Below, one piece after another: positions 6,074-63,794 of a DNA stretch of 64,000 bases (position 1 is the stretch's first letter; every line of letters begins with the position of its first letter). The translations under genes were made by a program, and so were the position numbers. Location of the stretch: positions 37,508 to 101,507 of the forward strand of contig CAZQSX010000001.1 in NCBI GenBank assembly GCA_964596415.1. The letters are read 5' to 3'. The DNA comes from an uncultured Gammaproteobacteria bacterium. GTDB lineage: Bacteria; Patescibacteriota; Microgenomatia; Levybacterales; GWA1-39-11. Below the pieces are notes generated by a model, which did not search any database, was not told where the DNA came from, and saw only the letters and a list, made by a program, of their open reading frames with translations.

Positions 6074-6075
6074 TT

Positions 6076-6591: not shown

Positions 6592-6631
6592 CTTGCTAAA
6601 GCGTGATATACTTAAAAGTGGCAGCGTATAT

Positions 6632-7905: not shown

Positions 7906-7907
7906 TA

Positions 7908-19656: not shown

Positions 19657-19660
19657 AATT

Positions 19661-19972: not shown

Positions 19973-19975
19973 AGC

Positions 19976-26912: not shown

Positions 26913-26966
26913 TTGACAAAGAATGAAGTTTTTCTTAAAATTAGCAATCAGAAGACTAAATTGATA

Positions 26967-26967
<1 letters not shown>
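26913..26967 (+). promoter_or_regulatory. groES promoter (TTGACA-17-TAAAAT) followed by a degenerate CIRCE-like operator TTAGCA-N15-TGATAA
   Basis: acTTGACAaagaatgaagtttttctTAAAATTAGCAatcagaagactaaatTGATAAtg. The outer half-sites match CIRCE TTAGCA/TGCTAA (one mismatch). Confidence 0.55.
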
Positions 26968-28984
<2,017 letters not shown>

Positions 28985-40634: not shown

Positions 40635-40641
40635 ATAGATA

Positions 40642-46965: not shown

Positions 46966-47035
46966 TGATTTTACGACGTTCTGGAACATAACTTTACCAG
47001 AATATAGGCTCTTTTTCAATATTGAAAAAATTCCC

Positions 47036-47073
47036 CTTGACACCAATTAGCAGTCGTGGTATATTATTGCTAA
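47036..47073 (+). promoter_or_regulatory. hrcA promoter region with CIRCE-like operator TTAGCA-gtcgtggtatattat-TGCTAA preceded by TTGACA
   Basis: Outer half-sites are perfect with a 15-nt spacer. Lies in the pyrB/hrcA divergent intergenic region. Confidence 0.6.
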
Positions 47074-47124
47074 TCCTTCGACTCGCTCTGTTTGCTCAGG
47101 ACAAGCACAAGGATTTTTAATACC

Positions 47125-47850
47125 ATGTATGATTTGACACCACGCCAAGTAGATATCTTAAAGCTTATTGTCAAGGAGTATATAGATAATGCAGAGCCTG
47201 TTGGCTCTGAAACCCTTGAAAAAAAATATGATATTGGGGTTTCACCCGCAACTATCAGAAATGAGATGGCAGAGATGGTGAAGCTTGGATATCTTTCAAA
47301 ACCTCATACATCAGCTGGTCGAATACCTTCTACAAAGGCATTAAAGCTTTACATAAATGAGCTTATGCGTGAAAAAGAAATTTCAGTAGCTGATGAAGTT
47401 CAAGCAAAAGAAAAAGTGTGGGATTATAGGGCAACACGAGATAAGTTTTTGCGCGAAGTTACAAAAAATTTAGCCCAAAAAACACATTCGCTTGCGGTTA
47501 CAACTACTTCTGAGGGAGATATTTATTATGCAGGATATGGAAATATTTTGGAGATGCCTGAATTTTACGATATTGATATAGCAAAAAATTTTCTTACCCT
47601 TCTTGATAATACTTCTTGCTTTGAAAGCATCATTGAACGTATGGAAAACGATTTTGGAATTTTTTTGGGTGATGAGTTAGGGAGCGAGCTGTATAAACCA
47701 TACAGTTTTATTTTTAGTAGATTTGATGTAAAATCTCATCAATGTCAGGGTTCAATTGGAGTGGTAGGTCCAGCTAGAGTAAGGTATGATTCGCTTGTAC
47801 CAACCGTTAAATTTTTTGGAGGGCTTATAGAAGACGTTGCTGAATGGTAG
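47125..47850 (+). CDS. hrcA: heat-inducible transcription repressor HrcA (short form, ~241 aa)
   Basis: N-terminal wHTH LTPRQVDILKLIVKEYIDNAEPVGSETL...SAGRIPSTKALKLYINELM. C-terminal GSIGVVGPARVRYDSLVPTVKFFGG is HrcA-like. Confidence 0.85.
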   Translation: MYDLTPRQVDILKLIVKEYIDNAEPVGSETLEKKYDIGVSPATIRNEMAEMVKLGYLSKPHTSAGRIPSTKALKLYINELMREKEISVADEVQAKEKVWDYRATRDKFLREVTKNLAQKTHSLAVTTTSEGDIYYAGYGNILEMPEFYDIDIAKNFLTLLDNTSCFESIIERMENDFGIFLGDELGSELYKPYSFIFSRFDVKSHQCQGSIGVVGPARVRYDSLVPTVKFFGGLIEDVAEW

Positions 47851-47897: not shown

Positions 47898-48443
47898 ATG
47901 GATAAGAAAAATAAGCAAAGCTTGCGACCCTCAGATGAGTCTGAAGGTCTAAAGAAACATGAAGAAACAACAGAAGAATTTGAAGAGGAGCTTGATCAGG
48001 AAGAGCACGTAGGAGAGGAACAAGAGGAGTCAGAAGCAGATGCTAGGGTAAAAAACTTAGAGGATCAATTAAAGCGGGCAGTTGCAGATTATCGTAATCT
48101 TGAAAATAGGGTGCAGGAGGAACGGATTGAGTTTGTAAAATTTGCAAATAAAAATTTGTTAGAAAATTTACTTCCTGCTTTTGACACAATAATTTTGGCC
48201 TCTCAATATTCTGAGGACCAGAACTTGCAAGTGACCGTAAAGTATTTACTTGATATTTTAAAGCAGGCAGGAGTAGAAAAAGTAGAAACAATTGGTCAGA
48301 AATTTGACCCGGTGACCATGGAGGCAATTGAGGTTATTGCGGGAAATGAAGGAGAGGTTGTAGAAGAGTCTCAGCCAGGATTTACACTGCATGGTAAGAT
48401 ATTAAGACCTGCGAGAGTAAAAGTGGGAAGGGAGAAGGAGTAA
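47898..48443 (+). CDS. grpE: nucleotide exchange factor GrpE
   Basis: Acidic N-terminus, long coiled coil (LKRAVADYRNLENRVQEERIEF), and a C-terminal beta-domain (GKILRPARVKV). Confidence 0.85.
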   Translation: MDKKNKQSLRPSDESEGLKKHEETTEEFEEELDQEEHVGEEQEESEADARVKNLEDQLKRAVADYRNLENRVQEERIEFVKFANKNLLENLLPAFDTIILASQYSEDQNLQVTVKYLLDILKQAGVEKVETIGQKFDPVTMEAIEVIAGNEGEVVEESQPGFTLHGKILRPARVKVGREKE

Positions 48444-48530: not shown

Positions 48531-50462
48531 ATGTCTAAAATTATTGGTATTGATTTAGGAACAACAAATTCATGCGTTGCTGTTATGGAAGCAGGCACGC
48601 CTAAGGTTATTTTTTCTGCTGAAGGTAGAAATGTTACTCCTTCTGTGGTTGATCCAGTTGATCGTGTTGTGGGAGATGTGGCAAAGCGTCAAATGGTTTT
48701 AAAGCCAAAAAGAATAATTTTCTCCATAAAAAGACTCATGGGAAGACGTTTTAAAGATAAGGAAGTGCAAGATGATTTAAAGCTTCTTCCGTATACCATA
48801 GAGGCAGGAAAAGAAGGCATGGCGATAGTTGAAGTAGAGGGTAAAAAATATACTCCAGAGGAAATTTCTGCAATGATTTTAACAAAGCTTAAAAATGACG
48901 CAGAATCATACTTGGGTGGAAAAGTAACACAAGCAGTTATTACAGTTCCAGCATATTTTGATGATTCTCAGCGTCAAGCAACAAAACAAGCAGGAGAAAT
49001 TGCTGGACTTGAGGTGCTTCGAATAGTAAATGAGCCAACAGCAGCGGCACTTGCCTATGGGCTTGATAAAAAACATGCGCATACCATTGCAGTTTATGAC
49101 ATGGGAGGCGGAACATTTGATATTTCTATACTTGAACTTGGTGAAGGAGTATATGAAGTAAAAGCAACAAATGGAGATACCCATTTAGGTGGAGATGATT
49201 TTGATCAAAAAATAATTGATTATATTGCTGATGAATTTAAAAAAGAAAATAGTATTGATTTGCGAAAAGATTCTCAGGCACTTCAAAGACTCAAAGAAGC
49301 AGCAGAAAAAGCAAAAATTGAACTTTCAACTTCTCAAGAGGCAGAGATTAACCAACCGTTTATAACACAAGGCGCAAATGGTCCGCTTCATCTAACCATG
49401 AAGTTAACGCGTAGCAAGCTTGAAAGCATCGTAGGTGAGTTAATAACAAACTCCTTTAAGCCAGTTGAGGCAGCCTTGAAAGATGCTGGAATGGATGCAT
49501 CTAAAGTAGATGAGGTGATTTTAGTAGGAGGTATGACGCGTATGCCAAAAATTGTTGAAGAAGTTGGAAAGTTCTTTGGAAAAGAACCAAATAAATCTGT
49601 CAATCCTGATGAGGTTGTTGCGGTTGGAGCAGCTGTTCAGGCAGGAGTTTTGGGTGGAGACGTGAAAGATGTACTGCTTTTAGATGTAACACCATTGACA
49701 CTGGGGATAGAAACATTAGGAGGAGTTGCAACGCCATTAATAAATCGCAATTCAACAATCCCTACTAAAAAATCTCAAGTATTTTCAACAGCTGCTGATA
49801 ATCAGACTCAGGTTGAAATTCATGTAGTTCAAGGGGAACGACCAATGGCTGCCGACAACAAGTCATTGGGTAGATTTATTTTAGATGGAATTCCACCAGC
49901 GCCCCGTGGTGTTCCCCAGGTTGAAGTGACCTTTGACATAGATGCTTCAGGACTTTTATCAGTTACCGCAAAGGATAATGCTTCAGGAAAAGAGCAAAGC
50001 ATTAAGATAACCGGTGGAACTGGTTTGTCAAAAGAAGAGGTTGAGAAAATGACAAAAGAAGCAGAAATGAATGCTGCTGAAGATGAAAAGAAAAAAGAAA
50101 TGATTGAAGTGAAAAACCGCGCGGATGGACTGATCTTTACTGCAGAAAAATCCCTTAAAGACTTGGGGGATAAAGTGCCCGCAGATTTGAAAACAGACGT
50201 TGAAGCAAAAATTGAGGCGCTAAGAGAAGCGCTGAAAGGTGATGATAAAGAGGCAATTGAAGCAAAAACAACAGAACTTTCAGAGCATCTCTCAAAAATA
50301 GGTGAACAGATGCAGCAGCAGCCAGGAGGACAGCCTGGAGCCGAACAGGCATCAGGGGAAACAGCGGGAGAACAGGCTGAGACTTCTTCAGAAGAAAACG
50401 GAGAAAAAAAAGAAGAAACGAAAGATAAAGACGAAGCAGTTGAAGGTGAAGTGGTGAATTAG
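48531..50462 (+). CDS. dnaK: molecular chaperone DnaK (Hsp70)
   Basis: [22 protein letters not shown], and an acidic C-terminal tail. Confidence 0.95.
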
Positions 50463-50591
50463 GAATTAGATACGAGGAATTAAAGATTAGAAAAATGCAA
50501 GAAACATCTTTACCAATGCCTACGCAAGACATCCCAATGGGATGTTTAATGTGTGGGAAGATGTAGAAAATAGCTTCAGTAGTAAATTGCA

Positions 50592-50619
50592 GATCTCCCA
50601 CAAAAGGGGAGATTTTTTT
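50592..50619 (+). terminator. rho-independent terminator after dnaK (AGATCTCCC-acaaaag-GGGAGAT followed by TTTTTTT)
   Basis: 7-bp GC-containing stem followed by a 7-T run, directly before the next ORF. Confidence 0.7.
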
Positions 50620-50630: not shown

Positions 50631-50957
50631 ATGGTTACAAGAATAGAAATTAGAAGGTTTTATGAGAAGAAAATATCAGACACTTCTCTGCATATTATTG
50701 CGGAGCTTCCTGATGTTTCGGGGGAATATAGACTTAACTCAGGCGAAATTGTTGAGATAAGCTTTGAAAAAGATACAAAACAAGGATATAGGTTTGTTCG
50801 GTTGAAAACAGAGAGTCTTAGAAATTTTCAAAGAAGAGGTAGAAAAGAAAGGAAAGTGAATGTTTCTAATGAGGGTAAGGGTTCTATAACTCTTTCTGCA
50901 AATGAAGTGCTTTTTGTTTCAACAGATGCTAAAGAAGATCAGTTTAAAAGCATATAA
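50631..50957 (+). CDS. hypothetical protein (108 aa)
   Basis: Intact ORF. No motif recognised. Confidence 0.45.
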   Translation: MVTRIEIRRFYEKKISDTSLHIIAELPDVSGEYRLNSGEIVEISFEKDTKQGYRFVRLKTESLRNFQRRGRKERKVNVSNEGKGSITLSANEVLFVSTDAKEDQFKSI

Positions 50958-50971
50958 AGGAGGTGGTATGA

Positions 50972-51307
50972 GTGATTTCATATGATGATTTTGAAAAAGT
51001 TGATATTCGAGTTGGAAAAATAATTGAGGTGAAAGATTTTCCAGAAGCCAGAAAACCTTCCTACAAGTTCACAATAGACTTTGGCTCTGAAATAGGCATT
51101 AAAAAATCAAGCGGTCAGTACACTAAATATTATAAAAAAGAAGAGCTTTTGGGAAAACTTGTTTTGGGTGTAGTTAATTTTCCGGAAAAACAAATTGGAC
51201 CTTTTATGTCACAATCTTTGACTCTTGGAGTTCCAGATAGTGAAGGTGCGGCGATTCTTATTGAGCCAAGTAATGAAAATGCAGTTATTGGCGGAAAGTT
51301 ATTTTAG
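50972..51307 (+). CDS. stand-alone tRNA-binding OB-fold protein (Trbp111/CsaA/MetRS-beta-like)
   Basis: FEKVDIRVGKIIEV...GVVNFP matches the tRNA-binding domain found at the C-terminus of MetRS/PheT and in CsaA. Confidence 0.75.
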   Translation: MISYDDFEKVDIRVGKIIEVKDFPEARKPSYKFTIDFGSEIGIKKSSGQYTKYYKKEELLGKLVLGVVNFPEKQIGPFMSQSLTLGVPDSEGAAILIEPSNENAVIGGKLF

Positions 51308-51730
51308 TTTATCAATTTTTCCATTCAAAACTATTGGTTGCATGGCGGAGATCTCGTCATAAAATGGGTGAGTTTTTAAATATGGATGCAGGAGGTAGAT
51401 TTTTATACCCGCATTAAATGCGATTCCCATTTCCATGAGTGCGTTTCCTCCTACATAACCCTTTATTCCATTCTTCGTCTTATTTACCACAAGAATTGCG
51501 CTTGATGTTAGCTCTTTTTCAAAGTGAAGTTTAATAAATTTAGCTTTGTCTTTTGCGGTAATGTGTTTTCTAAATTCAATAGGGTCAAAGTTTTTGGTCT
51601 TTTGCATGATGAGCGCTGATTCAGGGTAAAGAACTTTCCACCCTTTTCTTTCGAGTTTCTGCCCAAGTTTTAAAACCTCAGGATAAAACGTCATTGAAGA
51701 GCAAATGGTTATTGTTTTCATTGAGCTCAT
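51299..51730 (-). CDS. nucleoside 2-deoxyribosyltransferase-like protein
   Basis: ITICSSMTFYPE ... AILVVNKTKNGIKGYVGGNALMEMGIAFNAGIKIYLL resembles the Rossmann-like NDT/YtoQ fold. Confidence 0.55.
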   Translation of the reverse strand: MSSMKTITICSSMTFYPEVLKLGQKLERKGWKVLYPESALIMQKTKNFDPIEFRKHITAKDKAKFIKLHFEKELTSSAILVVNKTKNGIKGYVGGNALMEMGIAFNAGIKIYLLHPYLKTHPFYDEISAMQPIVLNGKIDKLK

Positions 51731-51784: not shown

Positions 51785-52075
51785 ATGGAATGTGCTGTTA
51801 ATGAGGTGGCAACAGATTTAGGTTGTCTACCTAATGATCCTGTTGGATTTATTCAAAAGTTTTATGGTATTGGCCTGTCACTTATTGGCATGGTTGCATT
51901 ACTATTTCTCATTTATGGAGGGTATCATATTTTAACCTCTGGTGGAAATTCCGAACAACTTCAAAAAGGAAAAGAATATATCTATTATGCTATAGCAGGA
52001 TTATTGCTTGCTATTTTTGGATTTGTTTTTGTGCAGTTTATTGCTGCAGGATTAAGAATTCCCGGATTTTCGTAA
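51785..52075 (+). CDS. small two-TM protein resembling the TrbC/VirB2-type T4SS pilins common in CPR-like genomes
   Basis: Two Cys near the N-terminus (CAVNEVATDLGCLPNDP). Helix 1 IGLSLIGMVALLFLIYGGYHILTSGGN, a short polar loop (EQLQKGKE), then helix 2 YIYYAIAGLLLAIFGFVFVQFIAAGL. No cleavable signal peptide. Confidence 0.5.
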   Translation: MECAVNEVATDLGCLPNDPVGFIQKFYGIGLSLIGMVALLFLIYGGYHILTSGGNSEQLQKGKEYIYYAIAGLLLAIFGFVFVQFIAAGLRIPGFS

Positions 52076-52086
52076 AAGGTAACACT

Positions 52087-54345
52087 ATGTATAAAAAACT
52101 GCCCATTTTTATAACCTGTTTTATATTTGTAAGCATACTTTTCTTTGGATTTGTCAAAAGTGTTTTCGCTCAGACAACAACAACTTCTGTTACTCCAACG
52201 CCTGAATTAATACAAGAAATTCAGCAAAGTTTTCCAGGTCTTCCTATAGATATTCCAGATTTAACTAATCCATCTGGAGGGCTTCCGATTGGAACAAGTC
52301 CAGTTGCTGAGGGCACTTGGGTTTCTGATTCAAATGTAACGTTTGTTGGAAAAACCGCATCTCGGTCAGGAGATTTTCTTGATTGGACTTTAAGAAATTA
52401 TGATTGGGCATGTGCTACAAAAAATGCAAATGGGTCATGTTCTAACCAAGGAAATCCACTTGTTGGGTTTTGGGCTTTAATTAGAAATATTGTGTACGCA
52501 CTTCTTATAGCAGTTGTACTTGTTGCAGCATTTGTCATGATTATAACTCGCGGAAGAAGCATTACCGTTATGCGTTTTATTCCTCGATTTATCTTTATTC
52601 TTGTTCTTGTGACTCTTTCGTATTCCTTGATACAGTTTATTTATCAAATAACAGATATTATAACTGGTTTTTTTCTTAGAGTAAGCGGATCTCTTATTTC
52701 AACAAAAGATTTAATTTTTATAGGATTTAACTATCAGACTTTTGAGGGTTTAAGGCTAGCTGGTTCAAAGTATGACGAGTCTGCGTTTATAACGCTTTTA
52801 TTAGTCAGGCTTACTGCCATAACGTATTATGTTATGACAGGGATTCTTCTTATTAGAAAAATTATTCTTTGGTTTTTTATAGTACTTTCCCCTATTTTCC
52901 CTCTTTTATTTTTCTTTAGGCCCGTAAGAAATACAGGAAAAATTTGGATAGGAGAATTTTTTAGATGGTTATTATATGCGCCGCTTTTCGCAATCTTTTT
53001 GCATGGATTGGTTGTTTTATGGAGTAGTGGAAGTCCTGATAAACCAGGAATTCCACTTGCTTTTGATTTGACAAGTCCAGGGCGCATTCCAGGTGTTGAG
53101 GCAAATGTTGTATATCCAACTGCCGTGAACATATTAATTGGTGGTCCAGGTCAGCAAATTGGAATTTATAATTCAGTTAATCTTCAGGACACATTTGCGC
53201 TTTATGTTGTTGCTCTTCTTATGCTTTGGGTTGTGATACTTCTTCCATTTATCTTACTTAAAATCTTCTTAGACTATCTGACTAATATTTCGCTTAAGGA
53301 TAATGTAACGCTTCAGAAGATGTGGGATAGGGGTATGGCGCCATTTAATCCAAAACCACCTTCTCCTGCGACCCCACCAATAGTTCCACCACCTGCTACA
53401 ACAGGGCTTGCAAAGTCTTTGCCATTTGCAGCAGGAATTTCTAGAACATTAAATCAAACAAAAAACATCACAGAAAATAAGACTGTTAATCAAGCTATGT
53501 CTAGTCCTGTAAATACGCAAATTCTCCAACTCTCAAATCTCTCAATTCCAAAAATGAGAGATATCGCAAAGTTTGAGACTTCTATGGTTTCAAAAGATAC
53601 AACTCGTCAACACGAAGTTAATAGATTAAAGACTTCACTTTCAAGAATTGCGAATCCAAGCTCAGTTCAAAGCGCATCAGAAAGAGATCGTTACACGCAG
53701 GTGAAACATCAGTTGACACAAGAAAAACAAAAAGGTAACGCTTTGGCTTCATCTATTCTTTCCGCAGCAAACACAACAAATCAGGCTTCCCGCGCTCATG
53801 TACCTGGGCAAAAAATTGCAGCCGTAGCAAATCTTCCAACTGTTAATAGGGTTCAGCAGGTTTCACTTGAAGATTATGAGGAGGTTAGAAAAATGTGGGT
53901 TGAAACATATCAATCATCAGAGCCCCCAACTGATCTAGCAGGAAAACAGGCAAATCGTGAAGAATGGATTAAGGGTGATATTGATAAGATTAATCAAGCA
54001 ATTACGCTTCTATCATCTATTGATCCAAGTCGTTCACAAGAAGGGATGGATATGGTTTCAAATATTTTGCCATTTCTAATGGTTGGAGGATTTTCAAAAA
54101 CTGAAGTTATAGCATACCTAAAAGCAAAACTTGAAGCAGCAAAGCAGGTAATGTCAGACACTAATAAAAAGAAAGAGGATGAGGAGGGTATGGTTGAAAG
54201 AGCCACTGGAACAACAACCGCTGAAAAACATATGACAATGGAAGCAGAAGCAAAAATTCCAGATGAAGAAGCGCCTAAAAAAACATTTGATACCCCTGAA
54301 GATGGTCAAGCAAAAATTGACGATTTGAGAAAAACAGGAGTGTAG
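52087..54345 (+). CDS. signal-peptide-bearing polytopic membrane protein (6 TM) with a long C-terminal hydrophilic domain; VirB6/TrbL-like topology
   Basis: SP MYKKLPIFITCFIFVSILFFGFVKSVFA, a Thr-rich N-terminal exodomain, six hydrophobic helices between about aa 125 and 400, and a C-terminal domain of about 350 aa rich in polar residues. Confidence 0.45.
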   Translation: MYKKLPIFITCFIFVSILFFGFVKSVFAQTTTTSVTPTPELIQEIQQSFPGLPIDIPDLTNPSGGLPIGTSPVAEGTWVSDSNVTFVGKTASRSGDFLDWTLRNYDWACATKNANGSCSNQGNPLVGFWALIRNIVYALLIAVVLVAAFVMIITRGRSITVMRFIPRFIFILVLVTLSYSLIQFIYQITDIITGFFLRVSGSLISTKDLIFIGFNYQTFEGLRLAGSKYDESAFITLLLVRLTAITYYVMTGILLIRKIILWFFIVLSPIFPLLFFFRPVRNTGKIWIGEFFRWLLYAPLFAIFLHGLVVLWSSGSPDKPGIPLAFDLTSPGRIPGVEANVVYPTAVNILIGGPGQQIGIYNSVNLQDTFALYVVALLMLWVVILLPFILLKIFLDYLTNISLKDNVTLQKMWDRGMAPFNPKPPSPATPPIVPPPATTGLAKSLPFAAGISRTLNQTKNITENKTVNQAMSSPVNTQILQLSNLSIPKMRDIAKFETSMVSKDTTRQHEVNRLKTSLSRIANPSSVQSASERDRYTQVKHQLTQEKQKGNALASSILSAANTTNQASRAHVPGQKIAAVANLPTVNRVQQVSLEDYEEVRKMWVETYQSSEPPTDLAGKQANREEWIKGDIDKINQAITLLSSIDPSRSQEGMDMVSNILPFLMVGGFSKTEVIAYLKAKLEAAKQVMSDTNKKKEDEEGMVERATGTTTAEKHMTMEAEAKIPDEEAPKKTFDTPEDGQAKIDDLRKTGV

Positions 54346-54438
54346 ACGAAAGCCTAAGAAATAGCTACATTGTTATAATAGTTAAATAGTTTATAATTAT
54401 TCTAGCCATTTAGCTATTTTTAACTAATTATTATTTTT

Positions 54439-57204
54439 ATGTTTGGTAATTTATTTTCTGTAAAGCATGACGCACAACAAGATAGCGGACAATCACAAGT
54501 TGTATCTGCTGGGACTACTATGAGTATTGGCGAGCAACCTGTTCATAGTACAAATATTTCCATAAATAGTAATCCATTAAACGTTCCACCTTCTCAACAG
54601 CCAGTTGTAGATCCTTCAGTTGGACAAGGAGGCATGGATCCTCAAAAACGCCAGAACCTTTTTGCCATGAGTAAGCTTGACCCACGAACTATTCAGGTTT
54701 TGCATCATGCACAAGAAGAAACAAAACGAATTGCCCAGCAATTTATTGGTCCGGAGCAGCTTTTAATAGGAATGTTTTATGACGGTGAGATTTTTAAAGT
54801 TTTCCAAAACTTTAATGTAGATGTAGCAAAGTTAACACGTGAAATCCAAACAAAAGAAGTAAGTGGGAGTTTTACCGGAGAACCCACATTATCTGATTCT
54901 GTTAAGCATATTTTTGAAGAGGCCTACACGGCAGCACAGGGAAGAGGGGCAGATTTTGTTTCTCCGGAAGATGTACTCGTTTCACTATTTTCACAACCAG
55001 TAACTTCTGAATTTTTAAAATCTTTTGGAGTAGAAAAGCAAAAATTGGAAGAAAACCTATCTAAATCTTCAGGTTATTCTGCTTCCAGAAAATCAGTATT
55101 AGATAAGTATGGAATAGATTTAACAAAAGAGGCGCGTGACGGAAAATTAGATCCTATTACGGGACGCGATAAAGAAACTGAGCGACTGATTCATATTTTA
55201 CTTCGAAGAACTAAAAACAACCCAATTATTATTGGTGAGGCAGGAGTTGGAAAAACTGCCATAGTTGAAGCGCTTGCGCAAAAAATTGTGCAAGGCTCTG
55301 TCCCTCACGATTTATTAAACAGAAAAATTATTCAGCTTGAATTATCATCTTTGGTAGCAGGCGCATCCCATAGAGGTGAATTTGAAGAGCGACTTCAAAA
55401 TGTCATCAAAGAAGCGCAAGCATCAGCTGGTCAGATAATTTTATTTATTGATGAAATTCATACGCTTATAGGAACTGGTGATACACAAGGCGCAATGGAT
55501 GCATCCAATATAATAAAGCCGTACTTAGCGCGTGGTCAATTACAATTAATAGGAACAACAACAACTTCAGAATATAGAAAATATTTTGAGAAAGATAAAG
55601 CTTTTGAAAGGCGGTTTCAGGCAGTTCTTGTTGAAGAACCATCAGAAGAAGTAGCAATGCAAATGCTTGAAGCGCTTAAGGCAAAATATGAGAAATATCA
55701 TCAAGTTGTTATTACCCCTCAAGCAATTGAGGCGGCTGTTAAGCTTTCTAAAAAATATATTGGTGAAAGATATCTTCCTGATAAGGGTGTAGATTTACTA
55801 GACGAGGCAGCGGCTGAAGTGAAACTCCAACATACTGAAGGAAAACGACCGGATAACCAAGTGGTGAAAGCAGATATTGAAAAAGTTGTATCTGCCTGGA
55901 CAGGAATACCAATAACAAAACTTACTGAAGATGAATCTGCAAAGCTTATTAATCTGGAGGATACAATTCATAAACGGTTTATTGACCAGGCAGAAGCTGT
56001 AAAAGCTGTGGCAGAAGCTGTAAGGCGCGGAAGAATTGGACTTGCTCCAGGAAATAGACCAATCGCATCCTTTATTTTCTTGGGACCAACAGGAGTTGGA
56101 AAAACAGAACTTGCAAAAACACTTGCTGAAATATTATTTGGTCGCGATGACCTCATGATTCGACTTGATATGTCTGAATATATGGAGAAGCACGAGGTAG
56201 CAAAACTTATCGGTGCTCCTCCTGGGTATGTGGGATATGAAGAAGGGGGTCAATTAACTGAAGCAGTGAGAGCAAAACCGTACTCCATAGTTCTTCTTGA
56301 TGAAATAGAGAAAGCACACCCTGATGTTTTTAATATACTCTTACAGCTTCTTGAAGACGGAAGACTGACTGACAATAAGGGAAATACTATTTCATTTAAA
56401 AATACAATTGTTATTGCCACATCAAATATTGGATCAGCTCTTATACAACAACAACTTCTTGCGTCGCAAAAAGATGGAACAAAAACAGCTGTAACAGAAG
56501 AAGATGAGAAGAAAAAATATGAAGCGCTTTCAAAGACACTTATGGATGAACTCCGAAAATTCTTTAAGCCTGAGCTTTTGAATCGTTTTGATGATTTAGT
56601 TATGTTTAAACCACTTCGTCAGCAAGATATGGCACAAATTGCAAAGTTAGGAATTGCCAAAACAAAAAAACTTTTGAAAGATCAAGAACTTGATTTGCAA
56701 ATATCAGATTCTGCTCTTCAAGTTTTGGCGAAAGAAGGATATGATCCGGTTTATGGAGCCAGACCTTTGAGACGTCTTATTCAATCCGCAATAGAAAACC
56801 CGATTGCTATTTTAATAATAAATAAAACATTTGTTCCAAAAGACACTATTCTTATTGATTATGATACTGCAAAAACTGAGTTTACATTTAAGAAAACAAC
56901 TCCTCCTCAGCCGTTAGTTCCGGGTCAGTACCCGCCTGGGGCTCAACCTCAACAAAGCGTTACAGGTATGAATCAAAACGGACAAGCGTTACAGGGTCAG
57001 CCAGTTATTGCAAATGGTATGTCATCTCAGGCAGGAAACCAAGCAGTACCAGGTGGATCTCAAGGAGGCGGTGGTATATTAACAAGTATTGCACAGGAAC
57101 ATACAGCAACTACTCCTCCAGCTGCTTCTCCTTCGTCTCCGACGTCTTCACAGAATCCGCCTCCCGTGATAGGCACAGATGGTACTGCCATGCAAAGAGC
57201 ATAA
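54439..57204 (+). CDS. Hsp100/Clp double-AAA+ ATPase (ClpC-like) with Q/P-rich N- and C-terminal low-complexity tails
   Basis: Clp_N repeats ([17 protein letters not shown]; EDVLVSLF). D1 Walker [13 protein letters not shown] and Walker [10 protein letters not shown]2 Walker [13 protein letters not shown], Walker [15 protein letters not shown], and a sensor. Short D1-D2 linker with no long M-domain. C-terminal ~130 aa Q/P/G/S-rich. Confidence 0.85.
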
Positions 57205-57225
57205 TGCTGTACAATAATAGTACGT

Positions 57226-59019
57226 ATGCATAAGGTTCGTAAGATTCTTCAGATTCAAGGAAAATTGGCTTATTCATTTTTACTACTCGGTATAGGAATT
57301 GGGATAGTGCTCATTCTTTTATATTTCTTTTTTTCAAGCAGAATTGCGGCAGAAAATGTCAGAACAGAAATATTTCCAGAAGGAGCAAGATATGCAAAAA
57401 ATCAAATAATTGTTAAATATAGATCAGGTTTTTCTCCACATGTATTAAACGCGCAAAACAAAAAACAAGACTTAGATCTTCTTGAAAATAAGCTAAAAAG
57501 TATTGGGGTTATTTCTCAAAATCGATTGTTTATTTCAGATAATATATTGCTTGAAAATTATTACATTTTAAATTTGCCTCAGGATAGTGATATTTTTCAG
57601 GTTTACACAAAGCTTTCAAAATTTTCAGAAATTGATGCAATCACCCCAGATTACATCTTAAGTGTTCAGGAGGTTCCTGATGATCCGGCGTATTCCTCTC
57701 TTTGGGGACTTTCTGAAATTTCAGCACCGAAAGCTTGGGATATTAAAAATGGGAAGAGTAATGTAATAGTAGGAATTGTTGATACTGGAGTTGATTTGAA
57801 TCATGAAGACTTGAAGGGAAACGTAATAAAAGGTGTAAATACTGTTGATGAAACTCGTGATCCTTCAGATGATCACGGGCATGGGACGCATGTTGCGGGA
57901 ACAGTTGGTGCAATCACTAATAATGCAATTGGAATTTCCAGTATTTCTTGGGGCGCAAAGCTATTGGCAATAAAAAGTTGTGATGAAAATGGAGATTGTA
58001 AAACCTCAGATGTATCAAAAGGTATAAAATACGCAATAGATAACGGCGCAAAAATTGTAAATGTGAGTGTTGCGGGTGAAGGGAGTTGTCGGGGTACATA
58101 TGATGATATGAGTAAATATGCAAAAGAAAAAAATGTACTACTTGTTGTTGCTGCCGGAAATGGAATAAATGGGAGAGGAGTAGATGCGAGAAAATGGATA
58201 CCTGCCGGATGTAATGATATATTTACTATTGGTGCGTTTGGTCCGTCTGGAGATCGGGCTCCATATTCAAACTATGGGAATGTTTTGTCTATGTCAGCTC
58301 CAGGAGGAGATAGGGGTTCAGAGGCGTGTACAGAATCAACTTGCATCTTATCAACCAGCAATAACAATACATACTCGCTTCGTCAAGGTACTTCTATGGC
58401 GGCGCCTCAAGTAAGTGGAGCCGCAGCGCTTTTGTTATCATATAATCCATTACTTTCTGTTAGTCAGATTCGCTCGTGCTTGATTCAAGGCGGAGATGTC
58501 TTAACAACTGATAAATACATTGGAAAAAAATTAAACACCCAAAAAGCGCTTATGAGATGTGCGCCCATTGCATCTCCTACGCCTATTCAGAAAGTTGAGG
58601 ATTCTGGAAACTTATCTATTTCTGGCATTGTATATGCAGATGAAAATAATGATAAGTCTTTTGACTCAAATGAGATGCCAATTGTTGGTGCACAGGTTAT
58701 ACTTTCAGGATATGATTCACAAAGTGTTCTCTCAAATTCTACTGGTCGTTATATCTTTCCAGATTTAAAACCTGGTTTTTATACGATTTCAGTTTCAGTA
58801 GGCGGTCAAAGCGCGGGAGATTTGTATGATGTTTCGCTTCTCAAGTTATTTCCAAATGTACAAATAGATCTTCCTATTTCCTCTGAGTATATACCTTCAC
58901 CTACTCAGGATCAAAATCCAAAACCAACCCAGCAAGCATCCAGTATTCAATGTGTCCCTGACCCTGCTTGCGAATCTGCTGAGGGAAGTATTCAAATCTG
59001 CTCGCTGAAATGTGAATAA
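57226..59019 (+). CDS. secreted subtilisin-family (S8) serine protease with I9-like propeptide and C-terminal SdrD-B/Cna-B-like domain
   Basis: N-terminal TM/signal. Catalytic triad motifs VGIVDTGVD (Asp), HGTHVAGTVGA (His), GTSMAAPQVSGAAALL (Ser). C-terminal GIVYADENNDKSFDSNEMPIVGAQVILSGYD...GRYIFPDLKPGFYTISV. Confidence 0.9.
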   Translation: MHKVRKILQIQGKLAYSFLLLGIGIGIVLILLYFFFSSRIAAENVRTEIFPEGARYAKNQIIVKYRSGFSPHVLNAQNKKQDLDLLENKLKSIGVISQNRLFISDNILLENYYILNLPQDSDIFQVYTKLSKFSEIDAITPDYILSVQEVPDDPAYSSLWGLSEISAPKAWDIKNGKSNVIVGIVDTGVDLNHEDLKGNVIKGVNTVDETRDPSDDHGHGTHVAGTVGAITNNAIGISSISWGAKLLAIKSCDENGDCKTSDVSKGIKYAIDNGAKIVNVSVAGEGSCRGTYDDMSKYAKEKNVLLVVAAGNGINGRGVDARKWIPAGCNDIFTIGAFGPSGDRAPYSNYGNVLSMSAPGGDRGSEACTESTCILSTSNNNTYSLRQGTSMAAPQVSGAAALLLSYNPLLSVSQIRSCLIQGGDVLTTDKYIGKKLNTQKALMRCAPIASPTPIQKVEDSGNLSISGIVYADENNDKSFDSNEMPIVGAQVILSGYDSQSVLSNSTGRYIFPDLKPGFYTISVSVGGQSAGDLYDVSLLKLFPNVQIDLPISSEYIPSPTQDQNPKPTQQASSIQCVPDPACESAEGSIQICSLKCE

Positions 59020-59044
59020 TAACGTTAGCAAAAAAGGACTTAAT

Positions 59045-59071
59045 TTGCTAAAATATATGCTCAAAGCTGGA
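59045..59071 (+). promoter_or_regulatory. CIRCE-like operator TTAGCA-aaaaaggacttaatt-TGCTAA upstream of the dnaJ-like gene
   Basis: Perfect outer half-sites with a 15-nt spacer, followed by TAAAATAT and the start codon at 59082. Confidence 0.6.
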
Positions 59072-59081
59072 TAAAGAAAAA

Positions 59082-59954
59082 ATGAAAAAGGATTTTTATG
59101 AAATTTTAGGTGTAGCAAAAACCGCAACTGCGGACGAGTTAAAACGTGCCTATAGAAAGCTTGCTCTTGAGTATCACCCTGATAAAAATAAAGGAAAAGA
59201 TACAGAGGAGAAATTCAAAGAAATAAACCAAGCCTACGAGGTTTTATCAGATCCTCAGAAACGTGCAACGTATGATCAGGTTGGACGTGCAGGATTTGAT
59301 GCAGGGGCGGGAGCTGGTGGTGGGCCTTTTGGTGGATTTGGCGGACAGCAAGGTGGCGGATTTGGACCATTCACCTACTCTTATTCTACCGGTGGAGGGG
59401 CTCAGGGTTTTGATTTTGGTGGCGGTGCTGACCCTTTTGAAATATTTGAGCAATTTTTTGGTGGCGGATTTGGAAGGAGAAAGCCACGATATAGTATTTC
59501 AATAGATTTTTTAGAGGCAGTAAAAGGTGTGACAAAAAAAGTCAGTATAGATGGGAAAGCGCAGAATATTAAAATTCCAGCAGGGGTTGATAATGGTTCA
59601 CGAATTCAATTTCCAGATTATGATGTAGTGGTACAAGTAAAGGGAGATAAAAATTTTCACAGAGAAGGGTATGATATATTAACAGAAAAGCAAATTTCAA
59701 TTGCACAAGCAATTTTGGGGGATGAAGTAGATGTTGAAACTGTTCATGGGTCTGTAAAATTAAAAATTCCAGAAGGCACGCAATCAAATATTCTTATTAG
59801 AATTAAAGGAAAAGGAGTGCCTCATGTAAGGGGGAGAGGGTTTGGTGACCACTTTGTGAGAGTGAAAGTAGAAATTCCCGGGAAAGTAAGTAATAGACAA
59901 AAAGAATTGATACAAGAATTTGAAGAAGAAGGAAAGAAAAAAGGTTGGTTTTAG
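59082..59954 (+). CDS. dnaJ: DnaJ-family co-chaperone lacking the zinc-finger domain (CbpA/type II-like)
   Basis: J domain [35 protein letters not shown], a G/F-rich region, and a C-terminal substrate-binding beta domain. No CxxCxGxG repeats. Confidence 0.8.
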
Positions 59955-60012
59955 TTTTTTCGTCCACATCAATCCTTGATTTGTAAGCTCATCCACTCTA
60001 AACTAATACCAT

Positions 60013-60342
60013 ATGGGGATTCTGCTCTATCCTATTGCTGTGGTTCTGTTTTGGTACAAAGATGGTGCTTTCGCGCTTTTATTATATTTTCGTTCTTTGA
60101 ACGATTATTGCATTAGGCTTTTTTCCCTCCCAGGTTTATTTGTAACTTTTTTTAGACCTCTTAAGAATGAATATAGAAAAAATTTAGTAGTATTCTCTAT
60201 TTTATTCGGAATGATTGTTAAGACATTTTTAGTTATTGCTTCTCTTGGAGTACTTGCGGCGCTTTTTGCGTTAGAGGTTTTAATTTTTGTTTCCTATATA
60301 CTTTTTCCTATTTTACCGATTTTAGTTTTATTCTATGTCTAG
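60013..60342 (+). CDS. small membrane protein (109 aa, ~4 TM); possible N-terminal module of the downstream Hsp100-like gene (8-nt overlap, +1 frame)
   Basis: Hydrophobic ORF whose stop overlaps the start of 60335..62731. Confidence 0.45.
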   Translation: MGILLYPIAVVLFWYKDGAFALLLYFRSLNDYCIRLFSLPGLFVTFFRPLKNEYRKNLVVFSILFGMIVKTFLVIASLGVLAALFALEVLIFVSYILFPILPILVLFYV

Positions 60343-62731
60343 ATATTTATTTTTATACTATCAGATTAACAACACGCTTCTTGCGCGAGTGATTCGCTTA
60401 TTTTTCTTAGTGGGTGGGTTTATTGGAGTATTTTTTATAAGCACAAATACAGAAGTTTTTAAAATTGTGCTAATCTTCTACTCTTATTTTATTCTTCATG
60501 AAATTTTTATTCACTTTCATGTAGATAAAGCATTTCCGTATATAAAAGTCATTGATAATCCGCAGCAGATTTTAGATACAGTTCTTTTTAAAACAAGAAA
60601 AAAATATGTATCTGGAAAAGATGGACTGAAAGTTATTCAAAAAATTATGCATGATAAGGATGTTGAATTTATGATACAAAAAATAGGCGGTTTTAAGATA
60701 GATAATTTTTCTATTCCAAAAGATGAAATCTTAAAGAAAGCATTCGAATTAGTTTTAGAGATAAAAGGTGCTTATATTACTTCTGCAGATATGTTTACCG
60801 CTTATCTTTTACTTACTGAACTTCAGACGAAAATATTGCAAGAAAAAGAGTTGACGGAAAAAGATTTACTGGAAATATTAATATGGACACGTCAAGAATT
60901 TCATCTTGAACAGCCCAGAAAACAGGTTTTGCATTTTACCGGGTATGGGGTTTTTGATTTCTTTATCTACGGTTGGGATACATATATAAAGGAGTTTGCA
61001 TATGACATTACGTATTCTGTCTTAGGTAAGAAAGCATACCCAATTGTTGGTCGAGAAAAAGAATTTAATGAACTGACTGAAATCCTTTCAAAATCAACAG
61101 TAAATAACGCATTACTGGTGGGTGAGACGGGTGTTGGAAAAACATCACTTGTTTATAGGCTCGCTCTTGAATCATATCGTGATCCACGTTTTATTTTGGG
61201 ACATCGAAAAGTATATGAGGTAATGGTAGATAGATTACTTTCTGGTGTAAATTCATCAAGCGATTTAGAATCTCGGCTTGGATTGTTATTCGCTGAGGTT
61301 AATCATTCTGGAAATATTATTTTGTTTTTTCAAAATATTGAAAATATTTTTGGTGGAGGAGGTTTTGGGTTTGACATGTCTGGAATTCTATTTGAGTATT
61401 TAAAAAACGGAAGCATTCAAATTATCGGAAGTACTACGCCTGGATCCTACAAGGAAATTATAGAAAAAAAACAAAGCATTTTGCATTTATTTGAAAGAGT
61501 TTCTATTCAAGAACCAGAAAGAGAGCAAGTGTTTGAGATGATTGCGTCACATATTCCGGTAATAGAACACGAGTATGGAGTTTCTATTTCATACAAAGCA
61601 ATTCACGATGCTACAGAACTTGCATCTTCATATTTTCCAGATCAGGTATTGCCAGGAAAGGCGATAAACCTATTAACAGATGTTGCGGCAAAAGTAAGAC
61701 ATAGTGGTGGAAAAACTGTTGATAAAGATGATGTGGTAGCGGTAGTTCAGGAAAAAACAAATATTGTATTAGAGAAGCCATCAGATGAGGAGAAGGATAC
61801 ACTGCTTCATTTAGAGGAGCAAATGCATAAGCGTGTTATCGGACAAGAAGATGCGATAACAGCAGTTGCCAAAGCGATTCGACGACTCAGGTCTGGTTTC
61901 ACACAGCATACACGTCCTATTTCTGTATTTCTCTTTTTAGGTCCAACTGGAGTTGGAAAAACAGAAACTGCAAAGACGCTTGCCGATCTTTATTTTGGAG
62001 ATGAAGCTCATATGATTCGACTTGATATGTCTGAATACCAAACCCAGAATGAGGTAGAAAGGTTATTGGGAGGTTTGCCTGGGGGTGAAGAAATTTCTGG
62101 TTCACTACCTGATCAGGTTCATGAACATCCCTTCTCTTTGATTTTACTTGATGAATTTGAGAAGGCACATCCGCATATATTAGACATATTCTTACAAGTT
62201 TTTGAAGATGGAAGACTTACTGATAATCAAGGGAAAACTGTTTCATTTAAAAATACTATTATTATTGCTACTTCAAATGCAGGATCTGAAACAATTCGCG
62301 AGATGGTTGGAGGAGGGATGGATATAAGCACTGAGAAGAATAAAATTATAGATGGGCTGCTACAATCTGGAATTTTTAAACCAGAACTTTTAAATCGTTT
62401 TGACGATGTAATAATTTTTCAGCCGTTAACAGTAGAGGATGCAAAGCAAATTGCTGAATTATTAATAAAAACTTCTCTTCAGGCATTAGAAAGTGACCAG
62501 ATATATCTTACGTTTGATGAAAAAGTGATAAATAAGGTAGTTACTGAATCATTTGATGTGGAGGCAGGAGCTCGGAATATGAGAAGGTATATTGGAGCAG
62601 AGATTGAAGATTTCATTTCTCAGCTTATCTTAAAAGACCAGCTTCCTGCAGGGGTGCACGCGATGCTTTCAACTGATGATAACAATAAATTTATTTTAAT
62701 AAATGAAAAAGAGGTTGTAGCAGAAGCATAA
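60335..62731 (+). CDS. membrane-anchored Hsp100/Clp-family double-AAA+ ATPase paralog with degenerate D1 Walker B
   Basis: Two N-terminal TM helices. D1 Walker A GETGVGKTS is intact, but Walker B reads IILFFQNIENIF (the canonical h-h-h-h-D-E is replaced by Q-N). D2 Walker [13 protein letters not shown], Walker B LILLDEFEKAHPHI, and sensor-1 ATSNAGS are intact. Confidence 0.8.
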   Translation: MSRYLFLYYQINNTLLARVIRLFFLVGGFIGVFFISTNTEVFKIVLIFYSYFILHEIFIHFHVDKAFPYIKVIDNPQQILDTVLFKTRKKYVSGKDGLKVIQKIMHDKDVEFMIQKIGGFKIDNFSIPKDEILKKAFELVLEIKGAYITSADMFTAYLLLTELQTKILQEKELTEKDLLEILIWTRQEFHLEQPRKQVLHFTGYGVFDFFIYGWDTYIKEFAYDITYSVLGKKAYPIVGREKEFNELTEILSKSTVNNALLVGETGVGKTSLVYRLALESYRDPRFILGHRKVYEVMVDRLLSGVNSSSDLESRLGLLFAEVNHSGNIILFFQNIENIFGGGGFGFDMSGILFEYLKNGSIQIIGSTTPGSYKEIIEKKQSILHLFERVSIQEPEREQVFEMIASHIPVIEHEYGVSISYKAIHDATELASSYFPDQVLPGKAINLLTDVAAKVRHSGGKTVDKDDVVAVVQEKTNIVLEKPSDEEKDTLLHLEEQMHKRVIGQEDAITAVAKAIRRLRSGFTQHTRPISVFLFLGPTGVGKTETAKTLADLYFGDEAHMIRLDMSEYQTQNEVERLLGGLPGGEEISGSLPDQVHEHPFSLILLDEFEKAHPHILDIFLQVFEDGRLTDNQGKTVSFKNTIIIATSNAGSETIREMVGGGMDISTEKNKIIDGLLQSGIFKPELLNRFDDVIIFQPLTVEDAKQIAELLIKTSLQALESDQIYLTFDEKVINKVVTESFDVEAGARNMRRYIGAEIEDFISQLILKDQLPAGVHAMLSTDDNNKFILINEKEVVAEA

Positions 62732-62780: not shown

Positions 62781-63794
62781 ATGAAAATTGCATGTTTTGA
62801 AGTTGAAAAGTGGGAAGAGGATTATTTAAAAGAAGGTTTACCCCAAGACGTAACGCTTCTTTCCTTTGATCATCCTATAAAAAAAGAAAACATTGAGGAA
62901 ATAAAAGACGTGGAAGGACTTATTGTGTTTATTTACTCCGGCATAACAAAGGACATAATTGATTTACTTCCAAATCTTAAGTTTATCGCTACGATGTCAA
63001 CAGGTTTTGATCATATTGATTTGGAGGCATGTAAGAGTAGAAATATTATTGTATCTAATGTTTCAGGATATGGGGAAACTACAGTAGCTGAGCATACATT
63101 TGCGTTACTACTTGCAATTTCAAGAAGAATTATTGAATCATATGAACGAGTGAGGGAGGGATATTTTTCCCCAGAAGATTTAACAGGATTTGATCTTTAT
63201 GGAAAAACACTTGGAGTTGTCGGGATTGGTAGCATCGGAAAACATGTTATTAAAATAGCAAAAGGATTTGGAATGAATGTGATTGGGTATAAGCGCTCAC
63301 CAGATCCAGAGCTTGAAAAGGAATTGGGATTTAAAATTGTTGACATGGATACGCTTTTGAAAACTTCAGATGTAATTTCATTACATGTTCCATATAATCC
63401 TGAGACGCATCACATTATTAACGTAGAAGCTTTTGAAAAAATGAAGCAAGGAGTAGTAATACTTAATACCGCACGTGGTCCACTTATTGATACGAGTGCT
63501 TTATTAAAATATGTTGAAAATGGGAAGGTCGGTGGTGTGGGCCTAGACGTATGTGAAAATGAGCCACTTCTTCGAGAGGAAAAACAAATTCTATCAAAAG
63601 AATTCAACAAGGAAGATTTGCTTTGTTTACTTGAAGAAAAAATGCTGATACTTCATAAAAATGTTATTCTTACACCGCATAATGCTTTTAATAGTCATGA
63701 GGCTTTGACTAAAATTCTTAAAACAACGGTTGAAAATGTACGTGGTTTTATTGGAAATATTCCCCTGAATGTTGTTAGTCAACAAGCGAGTTAA
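62781..63794 (+). CDS. D-isomer-specific 2-hydroxyacid dehydrogenase (D-lactate/glycerate/phosphoglycerate dehydrogenase family)
   Basis: NAD-binding GVVGIGSIGKHVIKIAKGFGMNVIGYKR. Catalytic Arg/Glu/His pattern (ARGPLID ... LDVCENEP ... TPHNA). Confidence 0.85.
   Translation: MKIACFEVEKWEEDYLKEGLPQDVTLLSFDHPIKKENIEEIKDVEGLIVFIYSGITKDIIDLLPNLKFIATMSTGFDHIDLEACKSRNIIVSNVSGYGETTVAEHTFALLLAISRRIIESYERVREGYFSPEDLTGFDLYGKTLGVVGIGSIGKHVIKIAKGFGMNVIGYKRSPDPELEKELGFKIVDMDTLLKTSDVISLHVPYNPETHHIINVEAFEKMKQGVVILNTARGPLIDTSALLKYVENGKVGGVGLDVCENEPLLREEKQILSKEFNKEDLLCLLEEKMLILHKNVILTPHNAFNSHEALTKILKTTVENVRGFIGNIPLNVVSQQAS

Follow-up and report, generated by a model that had tools for sequence, protein, structure and literature searches.

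Gene content and extent of the locus

The stretch of DNA analysed here (hereafter the window) comprises 64,000 nucleotides (nt) of contig CAZQSX010000001.1 (forward strand, positions 37,508 to 101,507) in assembly GCA_964596415.1, deposited as an uncultured Gammaproteobacteria bacterium and placed by GTDB among the Patescibacteriota (Microgenomatia; Levybacterales; GWA1-39-11). Between positions 51785 and 62731 it carries an island of seven + strand open reading frames (ORFs) of 96, 752, 921, 597, 290, 109 and 798 amino acids (aa), which encode in this order a pilin-like protein, a VirB6-like protein (VirB6L), an Hsp100 ATPase (Clp921), an S8 subtilase, DnaJ, a small membrane protein (tm109) and a membrane-tethered Hsp100 (tmClp), with intergenic distances of 11, 93, 21, 62, 58 and −8 nt. 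The GC content of the island (0.34-0.39) is the same as that of the remainder of the window. An earlier interpretation made from the letters of the window (the sequence-only reading) had described eight co-oriented, short-spaced + strand genes here; orientation, spacing and coordinates agree with our analysis, but the count is seven, and the eighth gene, a 2-hydroxyacid dehydrogenase, is co-oriented but lies outside the range given for the island. Most of its domain calls (pilin, two Hsp100s, S8 subtilase, J-protein) were recovered with Pfam, which gave no family for the transmembrane (TM) protein; its remark that each element alone is ordinary was not upheld.

Levybacteria and related Patescibacteria carry a lineage-specific supercluster of which the island makes up the downstream two-thirds, the full gene order being CIRCE-hrcA-grpE-dnaK-(dnaJ)-pilin-VirB6L-Clp921-[anchored hydrolase]-(dnaJ)-tm109-tmClp, where CIRCE denotes the controlling inverted repeat of chaperone expression. 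The sequence-only reading had therefore drawn the boundaries wrongly: the unit starts with CIRCE-hrcA-grpE-dnaK at 47047, and the CIRCE operator at 47047-47073 is the true upstream edge of the conserved supercluster. The supercluster is built from known parts and appears to be undescribed; no description of the arrangement was found in the literature searched.

Conservation of gene order in related genomes

Two sets of related loci were compared. The first, anchored on tmClp, consists of 33 loci retrieved by scanning species-representative genomes with the family-specific part of tmClp (12-sequence alignment), plus three index look-ups. The second, anchored on VirB6L, consists of 86 loci at 40-57% identity, takes in the 80 best matches to the VirB6L family and includes near-duplicates. 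Conservation of gene order had been set beforehand as the check that could refute a linked unit, and the order is clearly kept in the related genomes. In the VirB6L-anchored loci the pilin gene lies directly 5′ of VirB6L in 74 of 75 cases and Clp921 directly 3′ of it in 58 of 61, while dnaK precedes the pilin/VirB6L pair in 43/49 loci, and the small TM gene and tmClp follow VirB6L in 26/39. The position of dnaJ is more variable, being 5′ of the pilin gene in 47 loci and 3′ of it, after the Clp and hydrolase genes, in 15. Within this set the supercluster genes share one strand, and the median spacers are operon-like (dnaJ to pilin 48 nt, pilin to VirB6L 5.5, VirB6L to Clp 77, Clp to S8 6, tm109 to tmClp 1). 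The pilin-VirB6L-Clp921 trio also stays intact where the dnaK operon is absent (L036, L037).

From the tmClp side, tm109 is found 5′ of tmClp in all 33 loci, and the pilin-VirB6L-Clp921-(S8)-dnaJ block is located directly 5′ of this pair in 12 of them. In two further loci (L023, L030) the same block is inverted as a unit 3′ of tmClp, and in about half of the 33 it is absent within 9 kb of tmClp. Because the pilin-to-dnaJ block often lies away from tm109-tmClp, the two are best described as separable modules. Where tm109-tmClp stands alone, the pair has a promoter of its own and is not preceded by CIRCE. In L003, one such pair is flanked on one side by a sortase gene (12401-12922) and on the other by an operon for type IV pili (1-9611) that encodes T2SSE, T2SSF, N_methyl pilins and a response regulator.

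Two exceptional loci (L076, 11391-12965; L077, 11284-12981) have a gene for a SpoIID-like cell-wall enzyme, and no Hsp100 gene, directly after pilin and VirB6L, and in L077 a 1014-aa Clp gene is present 3.5 kb upstream.

The pilin and the VirB6-like protein

The 96-aa protein is, on the strength of its profile match, a VirB2-type pilin: it scores 31.3 bits against T4SS_pilin (PF18895, cutoff 26.6) and reaches 29.6 bits, below the cutoff of 40, against the NCBIfam Mycoplasma pilin-like family of integrative conjugative elements (ICEs; NF045849). Its orthologues are mostly 96-100 aa long, with two conserved cysteines in the N-terminal tail and two TM helices, and mostly lack a signal peptide.

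VirB6L is a polytopic inner-membrane protein of the VirB6/TrbL fold. Its AlphaFold model (predicted local distance difference test score 78) comprises a signal/TM1 helix, a small ectodomain, a bundle made up of long membrane helices and a helical cytoplasmic tail. Its match to Pfam TrbL (PF04610) stays below the gathering cutoff (21.0 against 25.9 bits), and weak TrbL matches were obtained for 13 of 20 relatives, the best with an E-value of 2.2e-5. The family is sharply bounded: at E ≤ 1e-3, a 120-member profile run against 1.84 billion representatives recovers just 555 proteins, and its members reach up to 2790 aa through repeat expansion. The window ORFs scanned and the Pfam tables for eight loci (L001, L003, L034-L039) contained no VirB4, coupling protein or relaxase. 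A 2025 survey of type IV secretion systems (T4SSs) in Patescibacteria reports VirB4-based systems in Microgenomatia and calls VirB6 “scarce”; it makes no mention of chaperones (PMC12102498). Co-occurrence of a cysteine pair in the VirB6L ectodomain with the 4-Cys tail described below was considered as well and is not used, the association being unstable, regex-dependent and apparently inverse.

Elsewhere in the window, PilN/PilO-like genes (19976-21162) form part of a type IV pilus assembly fragment (18283-21162, − strand) in which they adjoin a gene for a 457-aa protein containing fn3 and Big_13 domains; the fragment is distinct from the T4SS-type pilin of the island.

Clp921 and the repeat shared with VirB6L

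Pfam resolves Clp921 into Clp_N, two AAA modules (D1 and D2) and D2-small. The D1 pore loop reads AGASHRGEF, with His311 (55369-55371) in place of tyrosine, and histidine occupies this position in 49 of 50 orthologues; the GYVG pore loop of D2 is intact, and the N-terminal MFGNLF is conserved. When Clp921 is aligned with Staphylococcus aureus ClpC, query residues 472/473 span ClpC residues 411/469, so that the ~57-residue M-domain is missing, as it also is in the alignment with ClpB and in the 50 orthologues. The ClpP-docking loop is also missing, the ClpC segment FAGFGG being aligned with LLASQKDG, which is unconserved in the family. Without an M-domain for coupling to DnaK, Clp921 cannot act in the manner of ClpB, and without a ClpP loop it cannot act like ClpA, ClpC or ClpX. 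It falls below the NCBIfam cutoffs for ClpB (892.7 against 1232.1), ClpA, ClpV, ClpK and ClpG and is, as judged from these motifs and scores, a distinct and new Hsp100 subfamily. A ClpV-like identity, as in type VI secretion, was rejected on the score and on the absence of type VI secretion genes.

VirB6L and Clp921 are further connected by a repeat of about 62 aa. The VirB6L tail of the window contains a single copy, and across the family the consensus is L..IANP....ER..Y......L..E.QKGN.LA.SIL. A hidden Markov model of the repeat gave 317 hits in VirB6L ORFs and 42 in long Clp921 orthologues (10 loci), whose C-terminal extensions carry 4-5 copies, and matched no other ORF among the 3994 ORF segments of the window and loci. 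The lengths of VirB6L and Clp921 co-vary (rho 0.59), and long Clp forms are found only beside long VirB6L forms. The shared repeat argues for a functional linkage that goes beyond neighbourhood.

The hydrolase slot

Between Clp921 and tm109, the window encodes a subtilase with a Peptidase_S8 domain (PF00082, E 5e-55) and an SdrD_B (CnaB-like) domain (30.3 bits, cutoff 29.7), as the sequence-only reading had proposed when it described a subtilisin with a Cna-B-like domain. The best NCBIfam match is mycosin (E 4.8e-44), at 150.9 bits against a cutoff of 278.75, and the membrane anchor is N-terminal; the protein belongs to S8 in the general sense. Across the loci, this slot always encodes an N-terminally anchored extracytoplasmic protein, the main domain of which is S8, M4 thermolysin-like or of a third class, a ~430-aa domain with at most a weak hint of M64. 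All classes keep the N-terminal anchor, a P/T-rich linker and, at the extreme C-terminus, a tail with four cysteines, and most also have the SdrD_B-like domain. The tail pattern (Y.C..DP.C......IQ.C.L.C) gave 27 hits in the window and loci (~1.7 Mb), all of them in this slot and none elsewhere, and the corresponding profile, run against 5.8 billion proteins, returned one 43-aa fragment and nothing more. The slot can hold more than one tagged protein, as L069 (17237-17323 and 19071-19145) encodes two 4-Cys-tailed proteins in the interval from Clp921 to tm109. Exchange of the catalytic domain at a fixed position lends further support to a functional linkage of these genes.

tm109 and the membrane-tethered Hsp100

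In tm109 a cytoplasmic loop, FF(K/R)P.KNEYR..LV.FS, is invariant, and the protein matches no Pfam family even at E ≤ 1; an assignment as VirB3/PrgI-like was dropped on this account. Its partner tmClp has a membrane hairpin of two helices within the first ~60 residues, which is conserved in 107 relatives and bears out the membrane tether that the sequence-only reading had placed on one ATPase. Between the hairpin and D1 lies a remnant of Clp_N that corresponds to its second half (hhalign 91%). In D1, Walker A is kept, Walker B reads FQN for IDE (61328-61336) and the arginine fingers are missing, with HLF in place of RRF. Compared with ClpC, the pore loops read NSSSDL for KYRGEF in D1 and G--GEE for GYVGY in D2. 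The protein has neither an M-domain nor a ClpP-docking loop, and its D2 is intact. From these substitutions D1 is predicted to be dead, with D2 alone able to hydrolyse ATP. Full-length relatives extend down to 40% identity, and those that are named are Levybacteria or Patescibacteria. By its motifs tmClp is a second new Hsp100 subfamily, membrane-tethered, D1-dead and without pore-loop tyrosines; the missing and altered motifs of the two proteins agree with the earlier description of both ATPases as atypical.

The dnaK operon and its promoters

CIRCE (≤4 mismatches) is found directly 5′ of hrcA in 41 related loci. In relatives the pilin gene follows dnaJ within ~50 nt, which makes read-through from the hrcA promoter possible for the downstream genes. 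In the window, dnaJ is displaced to a position 3′ of the protease gene and is preceded by an inverted repeat, TTAGCAAAA-N9-ATTTGCTAA (59025-59051), for which the sequence-only reading had proposed a CIRCE-like operator. The inverted repeat is real, but it coincides exactly with a sigma-70 promoter (−35 and TG-extended −10), which is the simpler account. Its arms (TTAGCAAAA/TTAGCAAAT) match each other at 8/9 positions with perfect outer hexamers and have 6 mismatches to the CIRCE consensus. Three copies of the arrangement TTAGCA-N15-TGCTAA are present in the window, where 0 would be expected: before hsp20 (36389), hrcA (47047) and dnaJ (59025); the hsp20 and hrcA sites share the arm TTAGCAGT(C/T), and the inner arm bases of the dnaJ site differ. 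The exact arrangement is absent from the first 33 related loci. In the dnaJ upstream regions of 15 relatives the −35-like hexamer and ATTTG.TA.AAT are kept and the palindrome mostly is not, while three loci (L091, L107, L109) have a weak CIRCE-like site with 4 mismatches 11-15 nt 5′ of the displaced dnaJ. Sequence comparison thus suggests that a promoter explains the dnaJ repeat no less well than an operator for HrcA would.

DnaJ itself matches PF00226 and PF01556, and PRK14299, a DnaJ model of 291 aa, is the only NCBIfam entry with which it aligns over the full length in a single stretch. Because the sequence contains no cysteine, it has no zinc finger, in agreement with the sequence-only reading, and it is of class B (type II).

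The interval between dnaK and the pilin gene (50631-51730) is a lineage-specific insertion with a 108-aa ORF of unknown function, a gene for a CsaA-like protein with a tRNA-binding domain (50972-51307) and an antisense 143-aa ORF without a family, of which 41%-identical copies occur elsewhere in L017 and L026.

Table 1 Positions of the supercluster genes, regulatory sites and associated features in the window.
Feature	Coordinates	Strand	Remarks
CIRCE operator 5′ of hsp20, TTAGCAGTT-N9-GACTGCTAA	36389-36415	+	second well-formed site; adjoins TTGACA −35
hsp20	36588-37022	+	
CIRCE operator 5′ of hrcA, TTAGCAGTC-N9-TATTGCTAA	47047-47073	+	overlaps TG-extended −10 of hrcA promoter (47037-47065)
hrcA	47092-47850	+	Pfam
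grpE	47898-48443	+	Pfam
dnaK	48531-50462	+	Pfam
Terminator-like hairpin	50591-50615		3′ of dnaK
VirB2-type pilin-like protein, 96 aa	51785-52075	+	two TM helices, Cys pair in N-terminal tail, no signal peptide
VirB6L, polytopic membrane protein, 752 aa	52087-54345	+	signal/TM1, small ectodomain, bundle aa ~124-417, tail aa 465-715
Tail repeat, ~62 aa, single copy	53599-53784	+	VirB6L aa 505-566, IANP...ER..Y...QKGN.LA.SIL
Clp921, Hsp100	54439-57204	+	MFGNLF N-terminus, low-complexity linker, Clp_N, D1, canonical D2, P/Q/G-rich C-terminal tail
S8 subtilase, type-II membrane-anchored, 597 aa	57226-59019	+	SdrD_B-like domain, P/T/Q-rich linker
4-Cys tail, CVPDPACESAEGSIQICSLKCE	58951-59016	+	extreme C-terminus of the S8 subtilase
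dnaJ promoter, TTAGCA-18-TAAAAT with upstream TG	59025-59054	+	also forms CIRCE-like palindrome
dnaJ, class B J-protein	59082-59954	+	J domain, G/F region, DnaJ_C; displaced to 3′ of protease gene
tm109, small multi-helix membrane protein, 109 aa	60013-60342	+	overlaps tmClp by 8 nt
tmClp, membrane-tethered Hsp100, 798 aa	60335-62731	+	N-terminal TM hairpin ~60380-60514
D-2-hydroxyacid dehydrogenase	62781-63794	+	conserved neighbour 3′ of tmClp in Levybacteria

Other features of the window

The dehydrogenase gene directly follows tmClp in most Levybacteria loci (L001-L033; 55-76% identity) with no apparent reason for the linkage, and it is probably not part of any machine encoded by the supercluster. 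Outside the supercluster, the CIRCE operator before hsp20 (Table 1) marks a further predicted member of the HrcA regulon in the window; about 170 nt separate this operator from the gene, and the intervening leader is long and structured-looking. No CIRCE with ≤3 mismatches was found near the GroEL gene (27335-28984), and just 5′ of it a 121-aa ORF with a TTG start (26913-27278) may encode GroES. Immediately upstream of the supercluster, positions 38923-47046 hold pyrimidine biosynthesis genes, namely dihydroorotate dehydrogenase, a phosphoribosyltransferase, an amidohydrolase, the large and small subunits of carbamoyl-phosphate synthase and aspartate carbamoyltransferase. Bacteria of the Candidate Phyla Radiation (CPR) are generally described as being without de novo nucleotide synthesis, which makes this run of genes notable. 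A 717-aa protein with Kelch repeats and a Peptidase_C39-like domain is encoded at 2222-4375.

Proposed function and alternative explanations

The interpretation that we put first, and hold tentatively, is that the locus encodes an Hsp100-coupled VirB2/VirB6 envelope machine embedded in a heat-shock operon. VirB6L and the pilin would form a membrane platform or channel, like VirB6 and VirB2 at the base of a T4SS, and a Clp921 hexamer would dock on VirB6L at its cytoplasmic tail, which is helical. With power chiefly from the intact D2 ring, Clp921 would unfold, extract or feed polypeptides at the VirB6L platform; pilin subunits are the simplest candidate substrates, and the task would be that of VirB4 in canonical systems. 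DnaK, DnaJ and GrpE, which in most relatives would be co-transcribed from the CIRCE promoter, may supply or hold substrates and tie the output to HrcA control, while the anchored hydrolase (S8, M4 or third class) with its 4-Cys tail would be the partner on the outside of the cell, where it would mature or trim the structure or be displayed on it. The tm109-tmClp pair would then constitute a second, separable module, with the N-face of tmClp directed toward the membrane and without threading tyrosines, and tmClp is more likely a remodeller or regulator of membrane complexes partnered with tm109 than an unfoldase. The functionally linked unit advocated in the sequence-only reading is favoured by the synteny, the shared repeat and the swapped catalytic domain, but not in its extent as a single unit, given at least two separable modules. 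Its further suggestion that the genes may power extraction or secretion comes close to the reading favoured here. The full version, an unrecognised envelope machine of Patescibacteria in which Hsp100s replace VirB4/VirD4 (Clp921 docked, tmClp as a regulatory ring) and which is expressed from the HrcA operon, serves filament assembly or polypeptide export and works with a dedicated surface hydrolase that is recognised by its new C-terminal 4-Cys tag, we consider rather unlikely as a whole.

Several observations weigh against a coupled machine. The synteny counts contain near-duplicates, take in the 80 best matches and ignore phylogeny; gene order is in any case generally conserved in streamlined CPR genomes, and in about half of the Levybacteria species tm109-tmClp is unlinked from the remaining cluster. 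The Clp921 of the window has no repeat copy, the repeat-bearing Clp921 forms occur in 10 loci that possibly belong to a single clade, and contact between Clp921 and VirB6L is suggested only by adjacency and the shared repeat. Heat-shock co-transcription fails in this window because a hairpin, two small genes and an antisense gene lie between dnaK and the pilin gene, and CIRCE was not found directly 5′ of the pilin gene, VirB6L, Clp921 or tm109 in any locus. Finally, VirB6L may be the missing VirB6 of an ordinary Microgenomatia VirB4 system. This last point leads to an alternative that we doubt but regard as possible, namely a conserved neighbourhood without a joint machine, in which VirB6L and the pilin are the divergent VirB6/VirB2 of an ordinary VirB4-dependent T4SS and Clp921 is a housekeeping Hsp100. 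The genes would have become fixed in a highly expressed chaperone operon in the ancestor of the class, where breakage would strand promoterless downstream genes. clp genes adjoin dnaK operons in other bacteria too, the short spacers are compatible with a single long transcript, and the SpoIID-like enzyme takes the place of Clp after pilin-VirB6L in L076 and L077, all of which fits such a neighbourhood. It also fits that standard models miss VirB6L (TrbL below cutoff) and that a published survey reports Microgenomatia VirB4 systems but few VirB6 homologues (PMC12102498). However, the trio survives loss of the dnaK operon and inversions, while the genes around it, dnaJ and that of the hydrolase, shift position or are replaced; a repeat exclusive to VirB6L and Clp921 is hard to ascribe to inertia, and Clp921 is without the M-domain that a DnaK-coupled general disaggregase needs.

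The sequence-only reading had also offered envelope proteostasis, with quality control or processing of exported surface proteins. In such a stress-regulated set, tmClp and tm109 would extract damaged membrane proteins, Clp921 with DnaK/DnaJ would process them, the protease would degrade misfolded surface proteins, and VirB6L and the pilin would serve as clients or as a channel for release. The embedding of the gene set in an HrcA/CIRCE operon, the tethering of tmClp with its entry face toward the bilayer, and an extracellular protease that is always membrane-anchored whatever its catalytic class would all suit this explanation. We nevertheless judge it unlikely, given that tmClp, without pore-loop tyrosines and with a dead D1, is poorly equipped for extraction, that stand-alone tm109-tmClp pairs have no CIRCE, that it gives no role to a VirB6-fold protein or a pilin, and that it leaves the 4-Cys tail and the VirB6L/Clp repeat unexplained. 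A remnant of an ICE or other mobile DNA that brought T4SS genes beside the chaperones is very improbable: T4SS genes are often mobile and the pilin weakly resembles the Mycoplasma ICE family NF045849 (29.6 vs 40 bits), but the GC content equals that of the remainder of the window, no integrase, relaxase, VirB4 or coupling protein was found nearby among the window ORFs scanned and the annotated loci, and the cluster holds the same chromosomal position in dozens of divergent genomes. A mobile origin was rejected on these grounds of composition, gene content and fixed position.

Significance and comparison with known systems

Patescibacteria account for a large share of bacterial diversity and live attached to other cells. 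As cited in the survey, few genes have been shown to be essential for the attached lifestyle in the sole genetically tractable member, and T4SS-like genes belong to them (PMC12102498). For Microgenomatia, where VirB6 was reported as scarce or missing, the present locus provides a VirB6-fold protein that is strongly conserved, together with a pilin, and does so in an unexpected setting, inside a dnaK operon and beside an Hsp100 that can be neither a disaggregase of the ClpB type nor a partner of ClpP. Physical coupling would make the system a bacterial equivalent of translocons driven by an Hsp100, such as PTEX, and would represent a new means of powering a T4SS platform. Even without coupling, the locus adds two new Hsp100 subfamilies, a new family of small membrane partners (tm109) and a cluster-specific 4-Cys C-terminal tag common to proteases of different catalytic classes.

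Among the closest known systems is the VirB6/VirB2 platform of conjugative T4SSs, including the TrwI-TrwJ stalk of R388 and the DotA protochannel of Legionella. Here, however, no VirB4, VirB3, VirB5, VirB8, VirD4 or relaxase lies nearby, VirB6L is too divergent for the TrbL model (21 vs 25.9 bits), its cytoplasmic tail is long and carries the repeat, the near-constant neighbour is an Hsp100, and pilin and VirB6L sit inside the dnaK operon. As a functional analogy only, an Hsp100 with N-D1-D2 architecture placed on a membrane channel is found in Plasmodium PTEX (HSP101 on EXP2) and with chloroplast Hsp93 at TIC, although the membrane components are unrelated, HSP101 keeps its M-domain and pore-loop tyrosines, and the coupling proposed here is inferred. 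ClpB, ClpC/ClpA and ClpV (TssH) have the same Clp_N, two AAA+ modules and D2-small, and ClpC and ClpB give the best matches, whereas Clp921 is without M-domain and ClpP loop and has histidine for tyrosine, and tmClp adds the hairpin, a dead D1 and the loss of pore-loop tyrosines. Type VII (ESX) systems show a similar combination of a membrane-anchored S8 mycosin, polytopic membrane proteins and the AAA+ protein EccA, but the anchor here is N- and not C-terminal, Ecc components are absent, the protease class is exchangeable and the mycosin score is below cutoff.

Torsin with LAP1/LULL1, and Msp1, are membrane-associated AAA+ proteins, Torsin being paired with cofactors. By analogy only, tmClp resembles them as a Clp-clade protein at the membrane with no aromatic pore loops and a small membrane partner; in contrast, it is two-ringed and bacterial and keeps the D2 arginine finger, and the AAA+ fold is the only kinship considered. 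With the hrcA-grpE-dnaK-dnaJ operon of Bacillus and other Gram-positive bacteria, finally, the supercluster shares the order hrcA-grpE-dnaK(-dnaJ) and the CIRCE over the promoter. The differences are that DnaJ is here a class B protein without a zinc finger, that dnaJ has moved 9 kb downstream in this genome, and that in relatives the operon continues into the genes for the pilin, the VirB6-like protein, the Hsp100, the hydrolase and the membrane Hsp100.

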